Assembly: GCF_003334305.1 (NCBI RefSeq)
Contig: NZ_QOWS01000024.1
Source: Escherichia coli
GTDB lineage: Bacteria; Pseudomonadota; Gammaproteobacteria; Enterobacterales; Enterobacteriaceae
Reading direction: 5' to 3' (one strand)
Length of the DNA stretch: 64,000 bases
The translations under genes and the position numbers were made by a program. The notes below the pieces were generated by a model that was given only the letters and a program-made list of their open reading frames with translations, was not told the origin of the DNA and did no database searches. This document shows positions 3,411 through 56,140 of this stretch, piece by piece (the first letter of the stretch is position 1; the number at the start of each line of letters is the position of its first letter).

Positions 3411-3791
3411 TTACTGCGTGGTACCGTCGGTTTTGGTATCGACATCATTATTGATGCCATCACCGGTTTGTACCTTTTTATTGATATCCGGACAGCGACC
3501 ATCTTTGCACATGGTGTTCTTGTGCTCTTCATCTTTGGTCATTCCGTCATTGTTCATTGAAGAACCATCCGAATGCAGCATTGTGCCACCAGAACCGGTA
3601 TTTACCCCGTTATTGTCGACGTTATTTGGCGCGACATTTTCACGGGCGTCAGGGGCTACCTGGCCCGCATCAGCTGCGGCGTTTGCCTGGCCGTTATTAG
3701 TTTGCGCTCCGCTATCGGCAGCCAGTGCGGCACCGCTGGCAAGGCTTAGAGTGGCAGTCAGAAATAATGTGGCCAGTTTTGTCATTTTCAT
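3411..3791 (-). CDS. ybgS: secreted low-complexity protein YbgS
   Basis: ORF track 126 aa; signal peptide [24 protein letters not shown]; Asn/Gly/Asp/Thr-rich mature part. Confidence 0.85.
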
Positions 3792-18100: not shown

Positions 18101-19054
18101 TTAACCTATCTCCTGTAACGCATGTCTCTGGCGTTCGACGATATTGGTCCACAAATTGTCTTTATCGTCAGTCCACAAATTAATCAGCAAGGCAAAAAAG
18201 CGTTCTGCTGCCGGAGAAAGCACGGCATCTTTGCGGCGAATAATCCCCAATGTCCGACGTATAACGGGTTCCACCAGTGGAATACCAATAATCGAAGAAT
18301 AGGGCGCATGGGGCATTGCCAGACCAGGAAGCGCCGAAATCCCCAGTCCCGCCTCTACCAGTCCTAATGACGTCGAAAGATGACGCACTTCGTAAAACCA
18401 GTCCAGCTTCCAGGGCTTGTCGGCTAGCTGTTGTTCTATCAACAATCGGTTGCCGCTGGAGGAACGTACGCCAATCATTTTGTAACCCACTAACTCCTGC
18501 CATTCTACAAGCTGCTTTTTGGCCAATGGATGGTCACGCCGACAGGCCAGCACGAATGGCTCGTTGACCAGTGGGGTAAAATCAATGGATGAATTTGTGA
18601 CGTTGTTCATGTTTATGCCAAAGTCTGATTCGTTACACAGCACCGATTCCATGCAATTATTCGTGCCTTGTTCCAGAATCCGCACTTTAATATTGGGATA
18701 CAGCTCATTAAATTTACCGATTGCCAGCGGTAAAAAATAAAATACTGCGGTCGGAATACACGCTAACGTCACCATACCACGATGATAAGCATTCATATCA
18801 CGAATATTAAAAAGCGTTTCATCGAATTTCTTTATTAATTCCCGCGCCTCCGGGAGCAACCTTTTTCCTGCTTTTGTTAACGTAACCTTGCGAGTTTTAC
18901 GCTCAAATAGTTGAATATGTAAATCTTCCTCCATCTTTTTTATTCTTCGCGTTAATGCAGGTTGCGTAATATTGAGTAATTTAGCAGCATTGTTAAATGA
19001 ACTGGACTCTGCCAGTATGACAAATGCCTTCATACTTGATAATTCATGCTTCAT
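18101..19054 (-). CDS. ybhD: LysR-family transcriptional regulator
   Basis: ORF track 18101..19117; start trimmed to MKHELSSMKAFVILAESSSFNNAAKLLNITQPALTRRIKKME (LysR HTH); exact start uncertain (19054 or 19033). Confidence 0.8.
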   Translation of the reverse strand: MKHELSSMKAFVILAESSSFNNAAKLLNITQPALTRRIKKMEEDLHIQLFERKTRKVTLTKAGKRLLPEARELIKKFDETLFNIRDMNAYHRGMVTLACIPTAVFYFLPLAIGKFNELYPNIKVRILEQGTNNCMESVLCNESDFGINMNNVTNSSIDFTPLVNEPFVLACRRDHPLAKKQLVEWQELVGYKMIGVRSSSGNRLLIEQQLADKPWKLDWFYEVRHLSTSLGLVEAGLGISALPGLAMPHAPYSSIIGIPLVEPVIRRTLGIIRRKDAVLSPAAERFFALLINLWTDDKDNLWTNIVERQRHALQEIG

Positions 19055-19237
19055 TATTACTCCGGAAAATGGAAGCGACGATTTTGGGTGGCTGGTCGTT
19101 AAAAATTTTAACTGCATTTAGCCAACTTAAATTAATGAAAAAATGTTATTAATCGTTGAGCTAAAGTCATTAGAGATGCTTTGTCCTTAATGTAACCATA
19201 TCGCAATAAGTTATGTTTTTAAATTGAGGGCATTATT

Positions 19238-20290
19238 ATGAAAAAAATACCCTGCGTGATGATGCGAGGTGGAACCTCGAGGGGCGCGTTCCTGTTAGCG
19301 GAACATTTACCCGAAGATCAAACGCAGCGCGATAAAATATTGATGGCAATTATGGGTTCCGGTAACGATCTGGAAATTGACGGTATTGGCGGCGGTAATC
19401 CACTGACCAGTAAAGTCGCCATTATTAGCCGTTCCAGCGATCCGCGTGCTGATGTTGATTATCTGTTTGCTCAAGTTATCGTCCATGAGCAACGTGTCGA
19501 TACCACGCCTAACTGCGGCAATATGCTTTCTGGCGTTGGGGCATTCGCCATTGAAAATGGTTTGATTGCAGCGACATCACCGGTCACCCGTGTGCGTATC
19601 CGCAACGTCAATACGGGTACGTTCATCGAAGCTGATGTGCAAACGCCAAATGGTGTTGTCGAGTACGAGGGTAGTGCCAGAATTGACGGCGTACCGGGTA
19701 CTGCCGCACCGGTTGCGCTCACTTTCCTGAATGCCGCTGGAACCAAAACCGGAAAAGTTTTCCCGACTGATAATCAGATTGATTATTTTGACGATGTCCC
19801 GGTGACCTGTATCGATATGGCGATGCCAGTCGTCATTATTCCGGCTGAATATCTGGGAAAAACAGGTTATGAATTACCGGCGGAACTGGATGCCGACAAA
19901 GCATTATTAGCCCGCATTGAATCTATCCGTCTACAAGCGGGTAAAGCAATGGGCTTAGGTGATGTCAGTAATATGGTTATCCCTAAACCTGTGCTTATTT
20001 CTCCAGCGCAGAAAGGCGGGGCAATTAATGTGCGTTATTTTATGCCGCATTCTTGCCATCGCGCGCTGGCGATAACCGGTGCTATTGCTATTTCCAGTAG
20101 TTGTGCATTGGAAGGCACCGTCACCCGACAAATCGTCCCTTCTGTAGGATACGGCAATATCAATATTGAACACCCCAGTGGTGCGCTCGACGTTCATTTA
20201 AGTAATGAAGGTCAGGATGCCACGACGTTACGCGCATCTGTTATTCGGACAACCAGAAAAATATTTTCCGGTGAAGTTTATCTTCCCTGA
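19238..20290 (+). CDS. ybhH: PrpF/AcnD-accessory family isomerase-like protein
   Basis: ORF track 350 aa, MKKIPCVMMRGGTSRGAFL; divergent from ybhD. Confidence 0.85.
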   Translation: MKKIPCVMMRGGTSRGAFLLAEHLPEDQTQRDKILMAIMGSGNDLEIDGIGGGNPLTSKVAIISRSSDPRADVDYLFAQVIVHEQRVDTTPNCGNMLSGVGAFAIENGLIAATSPVTRVRIRNVNTGTFIEADVQTPNGVVEYEGSARIDGVPGTAAPVALTFLNAAGTKTGKVFPTDNQIDYFDDVPVTCIDMAMPVVIIPAEYLGKTGYELPAELDADKALLARIESIRLQAGKAMGLGDVSNMVIPKPVLISPAQKGGAINVRYFMPHSCHRALAITGAIAISSSCALEGTVTRQIVPSVGYGNINIEHPSGALDVHLSNEGQDATTLRASVIRTTRKIFSGEVYLP

Positions 20291-20365: not shown

Positions 20366-21799
20366 ATGAATAAGAAATCGTTATGGAAGCTAATTCTGAT
20401 ATTAGCGATCCCATGTATTATTGGCTTTATGCCAGCTCCGGCAGGATTAAGCGAACTGGCCTGGGTGCTTTTTGGTATTTACCTGGCGGCCATTGTGGGG
20501 CTGGTTATCAAGCCTTTCCCGGAACCTGTCGTACTGTTAATTGCCGTTGCTGCCTCGATGGTGGTGGTCGGTAACTTATCCGACGGTGCGTTTAAGACCA
20601 CCGCCGTATTAAGCGGTTACTCTTCAGGTACCACCTGGCTGGTGTTCTCGGCGTTTACCTTAAGCGCCGCATTTGTGACCACCGGCTTAGGTAAACGTAT
20701 TGCCTATTTGCTGATTGGTAAAATTGGTAGCACTACCCTGGGTCTGGGTTACGTTACGGTATTTCTCGATCTGGTACTGGCTCCGGCAACACCGTCTAAC
20801 ACCGCGCGTGCGGGCGGCATTGTGTTACCGATCATCAACAGCGTGGCGGTGGCTTTGGGGTCCGAACCGGAAAAAAGTCCGCGTCGTGTCGGACATTACC
20901 TGATGATGTCCATTTACATGGTCACCAAAACCACCAGCTATATGTTCTTTACCGCAATGGCGGGGAACATTCTGGCGCTGAAAATGATCAACGACATTCT
21001 GCACCTGCAAATTAGCTGGGGTGGATGGGCGCTGGCCGCCGGATTGCCGGGCATCATTATGCTGCTGGTCACCCCGCTGGTGATTTACACCATGTATCCG
21101 CCAGAAATTAAGAAGGTGGATAACAAAACCATCGCCAAAGCGGGCCTTGCCGAACTGGGACCGATGAAAATCCGCGAAAAAATGCTGCTCGGTGTCTTTG
21201 TGCTGGCGCTACTGGGCTGGATTTTCAGTAAGTCTCTGGGGGTTGATGAATCCACCGTGGCAATCGTTGTTATGGCGACCATGCTGCTGCTGGGTATCGT
21301 TACCTGGGAAGACGTGGTTAAAAATAAAGGCGGCTGGAATACCTTAATCTGGTACGGCGGTATTATCGGCTTAAGCTCCTTATTATCGAAAGTTAAATTC
21401 TTCGAATGGTTAGCTGAAGTCTTTAAAAATAACCTGGCATTTGATGGTCACGGTAACGTTGCTTTCTTCGTTATTATTTTCCTCAGCATTATCGTGCGTT
21501 ATTTCTTCGCTTCCGGTAGTGCCTATATCGTTGCTATGTTACCGGTATTTGCCATGCTGGCGAACGTCTCCGGCGCACCGTTAATGTTAACTGCGCTGGC
21601 ACTGTTGTTCTCCAACTCCTATGGCGGCATGGTTACTCACTATGGCGGCGCGGCAGGTCCGGTCATCTTTGGCGTGGGTTATAACGATATTAAATCCTGG
21701 TGGTTGGTCGGTGCGGTACTGACGATATTAACCTTCCTGGTGCATATCACCCTCGGCGTGTGGTGGTGGAATATGCTGATCGGCTGGAACATGCTGTAA
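20366..21799 (+). CDS. ybhI: DASS-family (divalent anion:Na+ symporter-like) transporter
   Basis: ORF track 477 aa, polytopic membrane protein. Confidence 0.85.
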   Translation: MNKKSLWKLILILAIPCIIGFMPAPAGLSELAWVLFGIYLAAIVGLVIKPFPEPVVLLIAVAASMVVVGNLSDGAFKTTAVLSGYSSGTTWLVFSAFTLSAAFVTTGLGKRIAYLLIGKIGSTTLGLGYVTVFLDLVLAPATPSNTARAGGIVLPIINSVAVALGSEPEKSPRRVGHYLMMSIYMVTKTTSYMFFTAMAGNILALKMINDILHLQISWGGWALAAGLPGIIMLLVTPLVIYTMYPPEIKKVDNKTIAKAGLAELGPMKIREKMLLGVFVLALLGWIFSKSLGVDESTVAIVVMATMLLLGIVTWEDVVKNKGGWNTLIWYGGIIGLSSLLSKVKFFEWLAEVFKNNLAFDGHGNVAFFVIIFLSIIVRYFFASGSAYIVAMLPVFAMLANVSGAPLMLTALALLFSNSYGGMVTHYGGAAGPVIFGVGYNDIKSWWLVGAVLTILTFLVHITLGVWWWNMLIGWNML

Positions 21800-21800
21800 A

Positions 21801-21926
21801 TATACTCGTCATACTTCAAGTTGCATGTGCTGCGTCTGCGTTCGCTCACCCCAGTCACTTACTTATGTAAGCTCCTGGGGATTCACTCGCTTGTCGCCTT
21901 CCTGCTACTCGAATTATTTAGAGTAT
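21801..21926. repeat. ERIC/IRU element (enterobacterial repetitive intergenic consensus)
   Basis: Contains ATGTAAGCTCCTGGGGATTCAC (ERIC1R primer sequence) and the reverse complement of AAGTAAGTGACTGGGGTGAGCG (ERIC2); terminal inverted repeat ATACTC...GAGTAT. Confidence 0.8.
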
Positions 21927-21981
21927 ATCCATTTATTATCTTTCTGCGCACTTCACGGTGCGCAGATATCGGGAGCATTTG

Positions 21982-35394: not shown

Positions 35395-35515
35395 CCACTA
35401 AACACTCTAGCCTCTGCACCTGGGTCAACTGATACGGTGCTTTGGCCGTGACAATGCTCGTAAAGATTGCCACCAGGGCGAAGGAAGAAATGACTTCGCC
35501 TCCCGTATCTGGAAA
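35395..35515 (+). promoter_or_regulatory. molybdenum cofactor (Moco) riboswitch in moaA leader
   Basis: Structured leader immediately upstream of moaA containing a CCUCCC element and GGAAAGG RBS; the E. coli moaA 5' UTR is known to carry the Moco RNA motif; boundaries approximate. Confidence 0.5.
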
Positions 35516-35522
35516 GGTGTAC

Positions 35523-36512
35523 ATGGCTTCACAACTGACTGATGCATTTGCGCGTAAGTTTTACTACTTGCGCCTGTCGATTACCGATGTGTGTAACTTT
35601 CGTTGCACCTACTGCCTGCCGGATGGCTACAAACCGAGCGGCGTCACCAATAAAGGCTTTCTTACCGTCGATGAAATTCGCCGGGTTACGCGCGCCTTCG
35701 CCAGTCTGGGCACCGAAAAAGTGCGCCTGACAGGCGGTGAGCCGTCTTTACGCCGCGACTTTACCGATATCATCGCCGCTGTGCGGGAAAACGACGCTAT
35801 CCGCCAGATTGCGGTCACCACCAATGGTTACCGTCTGGAACGCGATGTGGCGAACTGGCGCGATGCGGGACTTACTGGCATTAACGTCAGTGTCGACAGT
35901 CTGGACGCCCGCCAGTTTCACGCTATTACCGGGCAGGATAAATTCAACCAGGTCATGGCGGGGATTGATGCTGCATTTGAGGCCGGTTTTGAGAAGGTCA
36001 AAGTCAATACCGTGCTGATGCGTGATGTTAATCATCACCAGCTCGACACCTTTCTGAACTGGATCCAGCATCGCCCTATCCAGCTGCGTTTCATCGAACT
36101 GATGGAAACGGGCGAGGGCAGCGAGCTCTTCCGTAAGCATCACATCTCTGGTCAGGTTCTGCGTGACGAGCTACTGCGTCGCGGCTGGATCCACCAATTA
36201 CGTCAACGCAGCGACGGTCCCGCGCAAGTCTTTTGCCATCCAGATTACGCCGGAGAGATTGGCCTTATCATGCCGTATGAAAAAGACTTCTGCGCCACTT
36301 GCAACCGCCTGCGCGTTTCCTCCATTGGTAAACTCCATCTCTGCCTGTTTGGTGAAGGCGGCGTTAACCTGCGCGATCTGCTGGAAGACGATACCCAGCA
36401 ACAGGCGCTGGAAGCGCGTATTTCAGCGGCGCTGCGGGAGAAGAAACAGACCCATTTCCTGCATCAAAACAACACCGGTATTACGCAAAACTTATCGTAC
36501 ATTGGCGGCTAA
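35523..36512 (+). CDS. moaA: GTP 3',8-cyclase (radical SAM)
   Basis: ORF track 35442..36512; start trimmed to [31 protein letters not shown] (CxxxCxxC), 329 aa. Confidence 0.93.
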
Positions 36513-50767: not shown

Positions 50768-50866
<99 letters not shown>

Positions 50867-56029: not shown

Positions 56030-56140
56030 TAAACGCCTGATCCGTCCAACGGTTCGGATTTTGTAGGCCTGATAAGACGCGGTAGCGTCGCATCAGGCAT
56101 CTGTTGCCGGATGCGGCGTAAACGCCTTATCCGTCCTACG
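56030..56140. repeat. BIME/REP array
   Basis: Three REP-like palindromes (GCCTGATAAGACGCGG..CATCAGGC; GCCGGATGCGGCGTAAACGCCTTATCCG). Confidence 0.7.

Follow-up and report, generated by a model that had tools for sequence, protein, structure and literature searches.

The spacer between ybhI and ybhJ in Escherichia coli contains an ordinary full-length member of the ERIC/IRU repeat family, and this copy is essentially fixed in the species. By analogy with Yersinia, we consider there to be an even chance that the element is a passenger, transcribed along with its neighbours, that modestly affects segmental mRNA decay, in which case it would be a by-product of insertion and not a selected regulator. 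Coordinates (Table 1) refer to the window, the whole 64-kb stretch of DNA that was analysed. Over the tested stretch, identity is 100% with strain 504838 and 99.1% with K-12 derivatives.

Table 1. Genes, repeat features and structures at the ybhI-ybhJ junction, in window coordinates.
Feature	Position	Strand	Basis or remark
ybhD	18101-19117	-	
ybhH	19238-20290	+	
ybhI, putative tricarboxylate/anion transporter	20366-21799	+	TAA stop at 21797-21799
Full-length ERIC/IRU element	21801-21927	+	127 bp including TA at each end; primers, empty-site alleles, 28-copy alignment
Left copy of TA target-site duplication	21801-21802	.	Occupied (window, K-12, E. albertii) versus empty alleles (L005, L082)
Right copy of TA target-site duplication	21926-21927	.	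Same occupied-versus-empty alignment
Left terminal inverted repeat, TATACTC	21801-21807	+	Hairpin base; 1 nt past ybhI stop
Right terminal inverted repeat, GAGTATA	21921-21927	+	
Central conserved 44-bp ERIC core	21843-21886	+	ERIC2 complement, then ERIC1R; hairpin tip
V_AS5 / isrH sub-threshold matches	21805-21928 and 21799-21937	-	Rfam
Intercistronic stem-loop	21943-21966	+	10-bp stem, 4-nt loop (TCTGCGCACT-tcac-GGTGCGCAGA); 4 nt upstream of ybhJ Shine-Dalgarno
ybhJ Shine-Dalgarno, GGGAG	21971-21975	+	6 nt ahead of ATG
ybhJ, putative aconitase-family hydratase, 753 aa	21982-24243	+	ATG at 21982
ybhC	24477-25760	-	

The ERIC1R primer (ATGTAAGCTCCTGGGGATTCAC) matches the + strand at 21865-21886 and the ERIC2 primer (AAGTAAGTGACTGGGGTGAGCG) matches the - strand at 21843-21864, each with 0 mismatches. 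The two sites lie back to back and face outward. Each primer has a single match in the 64 kb, even when up to 3 mismatches are allowed (shuffled sequences predict 0), and the element is the only ERIC copy within the window. Its sequence runs TATACTCG...AGAGTATA. In the sense direction, from ybhI to ybhJ, the element runs opposite to the written ERIC2 primer, as its reverse complement. The K-12 copy lies at NC_000913.3 803322-803448, and both the open reading frames and the K-12 annotation place the element in intergenic DNA.

We assembled a family sample by using an 18-mer of the ERIC core to scan viral and metagenome contigs. The resulting 127 loci include 86 full-length ERIC copies in 29 distinct flank contexts, and 35 copies are at the ybhI-ybhJ locus itself. 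The window copy aligns over positions 1-127 with ERICs of the 28 other flank contexts (79-99% identity), nearly all copies of which have the ends TATAC...GTATA. A megablast query spanning the element (21700-22050) matched a median of 5, and at most 10, places per E. coli genome. The sequence-only reading had proposed a complete ERIC/IRU repeat with both primer sequences in inverted orientation, occupying most of the 182-bp gap. The exact primer matches, the 127-bp length and the end-to-end family alignment bear this out, and the element fills 70% of the gap. The extent proposed there, 21801-21926, is correct at the left end and one base short at the right, where the empty-site alleles (below) give 21927.

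The element is a non-autonomous transposon relic of the miniature inverted-repeat (MITE) type. It is also an already-known kind of element, and the K-12 reference carries the same copy. Repeats of this kind in Enterobacteriaceae (ERIC, IRU or RU-1) were reportedly described by Sharples and Lloyd in 1990, by Hulton et al. in 1991 and by Wilson and Sharp in 2006. The window copy agrees with them in its 127-bp length, exact core, imperfect palindrome, TATAC...GTATA ends, flanking TA and intergenic site. There is no structural difference, and the only window-specific SNPs are T at 21906, inside the element, and G at 21971, just outside it. The first is private or rare (38 other sequences have A). 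One survey counted 19 ERIC copies in K-12, compared with 21 in the literature.

Rfam has no ERIC family, and nothing in the element region reaches its gathering thresholds. On the - strand, there is a sub-threshold match over the full model length of V_AS5 (RF02818, a Vibrio antisense RNA; 40.5 bits, E 2e-7) and a partial sub-threshold match to isrH (RF01391). We rejected membership in either family, given scores far under the gathering thresholds of 96 and 45 bits, respectively. Both models appear to hold ERIC-derived sequence. Elsewhere in the window, matches that reach the Rfam gathering threshold are a Moco riboswitch (35391-35535, +, 103.6 bits), naRNA4 (56066-56136, -), two ES036 (34085-34126, -, and 50789-50831, -), and two tRNAs followed by an RtT element (1-310, +).

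A search of a genome collection with the YbhJ N-terminus returned at least four enterobacterial orthologous loci. E. albertii has the ERIC at the identical ybhI-ybhJ position, and the element is absent from 'E. coli' SCPM-O-B-8794, Citrobacter sp. FP75 and Edwardsiella hoshinae. SCPM-O-B-8794 has ~93% identity to the window and probably belongs to a cryptic Escherichia clade. The empty site reads CTGTAA-ATAT-CC and the occupied site CTGTAA-A-TA-[TACTCG...CGAGTA]-TA-T-CC. Because the two alleles align in this way, we place the insertion at a TA one base past the ybhI stop codon. The ATAT context makes the length of the duplication ambiguous (2-4 bp). Reviews describe a TA duplication and TA termini for ERIC, and the empty and occupied alleles at this junction are consistent with that description. 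Insertion brought a net gain of 125 bp, from a 57-bp spacer to one of 182 bp. In Citrobacter and Edwardsiella the spacer measures 68-73 bp. The comparison with Enterobacteriaceae that lack this copy, which had been suggested from the sequence, thus yielded clean empty sites in Escherichia and, across the ERIC-less relatives, spacers of 57-73 bp.

About 5,330 of 5,426 complete E. coli genomes have the occupied junction (at least 80% of 21700-22050). The ybhJ 5' region is intact in 5,329 of the 5,426 and absent in 51. It is partial in about 46, which have only part of 21929-22300; H71 (NZ_CP062851.1) matches only window 22209-22300 (query bases 281-372). A 48-nt empty-junction probe, unable to match occupied alleles at the E-value used, matched exactly one genome, that of E. 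coli GF4-3. Two metagenome contigs (L184 and L135) are E. coli-like through ybhI, the ERIC and the first 750-930 bp of ybhJ, and have only 67-73% nucleotide identity beyond that point. This fall in identity points to a mosaic ybhJ.

GF4-3 (NZ_CP053258.1, L082, locus positions 3520-3580) was isolated from a guinea fowl in the Gambia. No other complete E. coli genome has a precise ERIC-less junction of ybhI and ybhJ (TAAATATCC, a 57-bp gap). Its locus is 97-98.5% identical to the window, so the strain is true E. coli here. The empty allele has the flank variants 21931C and 21934C in common with the cryptic-clade sequence. Identity between these two alleles is 98% over ~200 bp at the junction and ~93% elsewhere. 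This pattern of sequence identity suggests that a short recombination patch probably removed the ERIC in GF4-3.

The ybhI-ybhJ gap has the same length in the K-12 annotation (803321-803502). The sequence around the window-specific G at 21971 is TCGGGAG, compared with TCTGGAG in K-12, E. albertii, GF4-3 and SCPM-O-B-8794. This private or rare SNP lengthens the ybhJ Shine-Dalgarno sequence from GGAG to GGGAG. The stem-loop just upstream is also present in the ERIC-less GF4-3 and SCPM-O-B-8794, and in E. albertii, where the sole change is in the loop. The equivalent position in Citrobacter FP75 is occupied by a weaker stem of 7 bp. By this sequence comparison, the stem-loop predates the ERIC insertion, and it may already have been an intercistronic structure before the ERIC arrived. 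A 58-codon open reading frame (21826-22002, +) has its ATG within the ERIC, spans the remainder of the gap and stops within ybhJ, out of frame with that gene. It lacks a Shine-Dalgarno sequence, and its translation is improbable.

Antisense RNAs have been reported opposite ybhJ. The Term-seq data of Adams et al. (2021) include an antisense 3' end inside the gene (K-12 805363, window ~23842, -). Opposite the coding region of ybhJ, Shinhara et al. (2011) listed ECS012, a candidate cis-antisense sRNA with a size of ~66 nt by sequencing and ~120 nt by Northern blot.

Co-transcription of ybhI and ybhJ across the ERIC is plausible from the arrangement of the locus, because ybhI and ybhJ run in the same direction, their ancestral spacer is short, gene order is conserved and no convincing promoter or terminator occurs in the gap. 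The order ybhD/ybhH-ybhI-ybhJ is kept in Escherichia, Citrobacter and Edwardsiella. Among the matches listed, YbhJ occurs within the Enterobacterales only in Escherichia, one Citrobacter and Edwardsiella hoshinae. Other YbhJ homologues among the matches listed (loci L006-L081; 60-72% full-length identity) are from Lachnospiraceae, other Clostridia, Collinsella, Synergistaceae and Megasphaera, and mostly have no adjacent ybhH or ybhI. The lack of these neighbours in Clostridia, Collinsella and Synergistaceae counts against co-transcription. This patchy distribution looks like horizontal transfer of ybhJ.

No sigma-70-like promoter in the ybhI-ybhJ gap passes a standard scan. A relaxed scan of the gap gave only 8-of-12 matches with spacers of 15 or 19 bp (e.g., TCGAAT-19-TATTAT, 21909-21939). 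There are 4 of these compared with a shuffle mean of 1.4 (sd 1.6), a count within ~1.7 sd of that mean. Matches of this kind, and the outward promoters that a review describes in some MITEs (e.g., Correia elements), would favour a promoter carried or created by the ERIC, with ybhJ transcribed independently from within or just after the element. Reviews, however, list the terminal inverted repeats (TIRs) as the sole DNA motif of ERIC. With both scans against a promoter inside or after the element, we rejected this candidate, and independent transcription of ybhJ by such means is extremely improbable.

A scan for terminator-like sites in 21800-21981 finds none. The ybhI and ybhJ genes are poorly expressed under standard conditions. 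The Term-seq supplement of Adams et al. (2021) has no 3' end at the junction, a result that carries little weight given the low expression, and the SMRT-Cappable-seq supplement has nothing for the ybhI-ybhJ junction. These results bear on the idea that the element is a barrier that stops part of the transcription, acting through the hairpin and a U-rich tract after it or through Rho loading on the 182-nt untranslated C-rich spacer, so that ybhJ would be under-expressed or uncoupled from ybhHI. The spacer is indeed C-rich on the + strand (C/G of 1.3-1.9 in 78-nt windows), and CCAUUUAUUAUCUUUCU follows the ERIC. In addition, ybhHI and ybhJ are treated separately in published discussion, a point that also counts against co-transcription. 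Rodionova et al. (2022) discuss the locus as 'ybhHI' and mention ybhJ separately, list only ybhH and ybhI as YbhD targets, and report upregulation of ybhH in a ybhD mutant. However, the C-rich arm is mostly sequestered in the predicted hairpin, and this, with the empty terminator scan and the Term-seq supplement, makes a barrier unlikely. An intrinsic terminator was also rejected, given that the AU-rich stem base is followed by UCCAUUUAUU, with no immediate U run, and that the scan is negative.

The RNA of either strand is predicted to fold into one long imperfect hairpin. The folding energy is -39.0 to -40.8 kcal/mol for the + (sense) strand (z -5.5 for -40.8) and -48.7 to -53.2 kcal/mol for the - strand (z -8.5 for -53.2). 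The sense RNA is the weaker-folding orientation in the window copy and in all 28 other copies folded. The family consensus (RNAalifold) is a single hairpin with 31 pairs, 8 of which have compensatory changes; at column pair 6-123, for example, 16 copies have C-G and 9 have U-A. This covariation alone is no proof of RNA function, because matching of the TIRs at the DNA level predicts it equally.

Variation within E. coli was assessed using 34 E. coli-type sequences, and no compensatory changes within the ERIC were found among them. Polymorphisms at element positions 4, 89 and 111 break pairs and one at position 36 turns a C-G pair into a U-G wobble, all uncompensated. Position 4 (21804) is T, not A, in about half of the E. 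coli sequences sampled and in K-12, which breaks one pair. Since the polymorphisms break pairs and none compensate, there is no sign of selection for the structure in E. coli. The long stable mRNA hairpin that had been anticipated from the letters thus stands as a predicted fold, in the weaker of the two orientations and with no mark of selection in E. coli variation. In the same 34 sequences, nucleotide diversity is 0.012 in the ERIC and 0.002 in the rest of the gap, compared with 0.025 and 0.064 at third codon positions of ybhI and ybhJ, respectively. The value for the ERIC is not far under that for ybhI synonymous sites, which argues against a strong or selected role.

The element may, as a second and less probable possibility, be a neutral passenger that, transcribed or not, has no measurable effect on ybhI or ybhJ and was fixed by drift or hitch-hiking. 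Several observations fit this. Stem-breaking polymorphisms are present at intermediate frequency and are uncompensated, the sense RNA has the weaker fold, and the spacer already held an older hairpin. The GF4-3 locus shows no visible damage from loss of the ERIC, probably by way of a short recombination patch. Stop-proximal copies among the 29 ERIC loci, for which open reading frames were crudely called, have orientations of 6:5, with no bias visible. The weaker sense fold, the pair-breaking SNPs, the 6:5 orientations and the older stem-loop also count against a strong or selected role. Complete neutrality is harder to reconcile with a hairpin of about -39 kcal/mol placed 1 nt past a stop codon in polycistronic RNA, which would normally affect access of exonucleases and RNase E, with the measurable effects described in reviews for comparably placed Yersinia ERICs (PMC2229807, PMC3184786, PMC10969869), and with the conservation between E. 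coli and E. albertii (below).

The reading that we prefer, of a passenger with a modest effect on decay, draws on the stop-codon-proximal ERICs of Yersinia. As summarised in reviews, Yersinia ERICs are co-transcribed with their neighbours and have an orientation-dependent effect, and refolding caused by ribosomes unmasks a site for RNase E in the 3' TIR, so that the upstream message decays (PMC2229807, PMC3184786, PMC10969869). The window copy resembles these elements in belonging to the same family, in lying between same-strand genes and in abutting the upstream stop codon. Yersinia copies have an AU-rich tract in the 3' TIR that can be exposed by melting of the 5' arm, and the window copy has such a tract, judging by its sequence. 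Copy number differs, at ~20-30 ERICs in E. coli compared with hundreds in Yersinia. The work on Yersinia enterocolitica is reportedly that of De Gregorio et al. in 2005. We know of no functional ERIC study other than this Yersinia work of 2005, and to our knowledge ERIC function in E. coli has been essentially untested since.

In the window copy, the AU-rich motif CGAATTATTTA (21910-21920, +) lies in the 3' arm and is near-invariant across aligned ERIC copies. The 3' arm of the sense RNA thus contains GAAUUAUUUAG. The GA/AUU within the motif fits the RN/WUU rule for RNase E, and the motif is a candidate RNase E entry site. Presumably the copy is in the destabilising orientation, as judged by the position of the AU-rich motif. 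When 21760-21812 was forced to be single-stranded, as a mimic of a terminating ribosome, the hairpin base opened and the unpaired probability of the AU-rich tract rose from 0.50 to 0.66. In the same constrained fold, the freed 3' arm of the ERIC paired with the ybhJ Shine-Dalgarno sequence. We rejected that pairing as an artefact, since it needs the window-specific G at 21971, where other sequences have T. A Yersinia-type reading is suggested because the 5' arm begins one base past the stop codon, the 3' arm carries the near-invariant motif, and the ribosome mimic opens the fold.

The steps of such a mechanism would be as follows. The ybhH, ybhI and ybhJ genes would be carried on one transcript from the ybhD-ybhH divergent region, with the ERIC inside the mRNA, where it would form a long imperfect hairpin of about -39 kcal/mol. 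Because the stop codon abuts the 5' arm, ribosomes terminating on ybhI would repeatedly melt the hairpin base. Melting would make the 3' arm, with its conserved AU-rich sequence, available for entry of RNase E, and a cut between the cistrons would give faster 3'-to-5' decay of the ybhH-ybhI segment relative to ybhJ. The predicted outcome is a modest lowering of ybhH-ybhI mRNA relative to ybhJ. The differential stability or processing that the sequence-only reading suggested for the two messages is, in this light, a reasonable analogy to Yersinia.

The ERIC of E. albertii (L002, L133) and the consensus ERIC of E. coli agree at 127/127 positions. In contrast, flanking third codon positions differ by ~25% between the two species, and the remainder of the gap by ~7%. 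On either side of the identical tract, the nearest differences are at 21781 and 21954, and their spacing is not clearly unlike the background. Introgression of a short tract, independent insertion of one master copy at this TA, homogenisation between copies and constraint could each account for the identity. Strict constraint is disfavoured, because the element is polymorphic within E. coli. The contrast between complete identity and ~25% flanking synonymous divergence is the reason to consider selection, in the form of an ultra-conserved intercistronic element that would act as a translation-coupled RNase E switch and set the ratio of transporter to hydratase. We regard such a switch as very unlikely. 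If it were true, the copy would be neither a recent nor a homogenised repeat.

Other repeats provide comparisons. REP/BIME intercistronic hairpins (e.g., in malE-malF) can be barriers to 3'-to-5' exonucleases and so give differential stability of mRNA segments, as the ERIC may. Like the ERIC in its putative operon, they are repetitive palindromes between co-transcribed genes. However, REPs are ~35 bp long and GC-rich and are unrelated in sequence, whereas the ERIC, a MITE of 127 bp, has AU ends and a TA duplication. The Correia/NEMIS elements of Neisseria, like ERICs, are TA-duplicating MITEs that are co-transcribed with neighbouring genes and form long hairpins processed by ribonuclease. RNase III cuts Correia hairpins where the TIR duplexes are near-perfect, and promoters or IHF sites are present in some of these elements. 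In contrast, the ERIC stem has many mismatches, and ERIC is not known to carry motifs of this sort.

The ERIC may slightly alter processing of the ybhI and ybhJ message, and nothing in this analysis shows that it is important. Two natural comparators exist within E. coli. The precise ERIC-less allele of GF4-3, in a background that is ~98% identical, is one for the effect of an ERIC on a polycistronic mRNA. The roughly 50:50 split of E. coli at the TIR-breaking SNP at 21804 (A/T) is the second.
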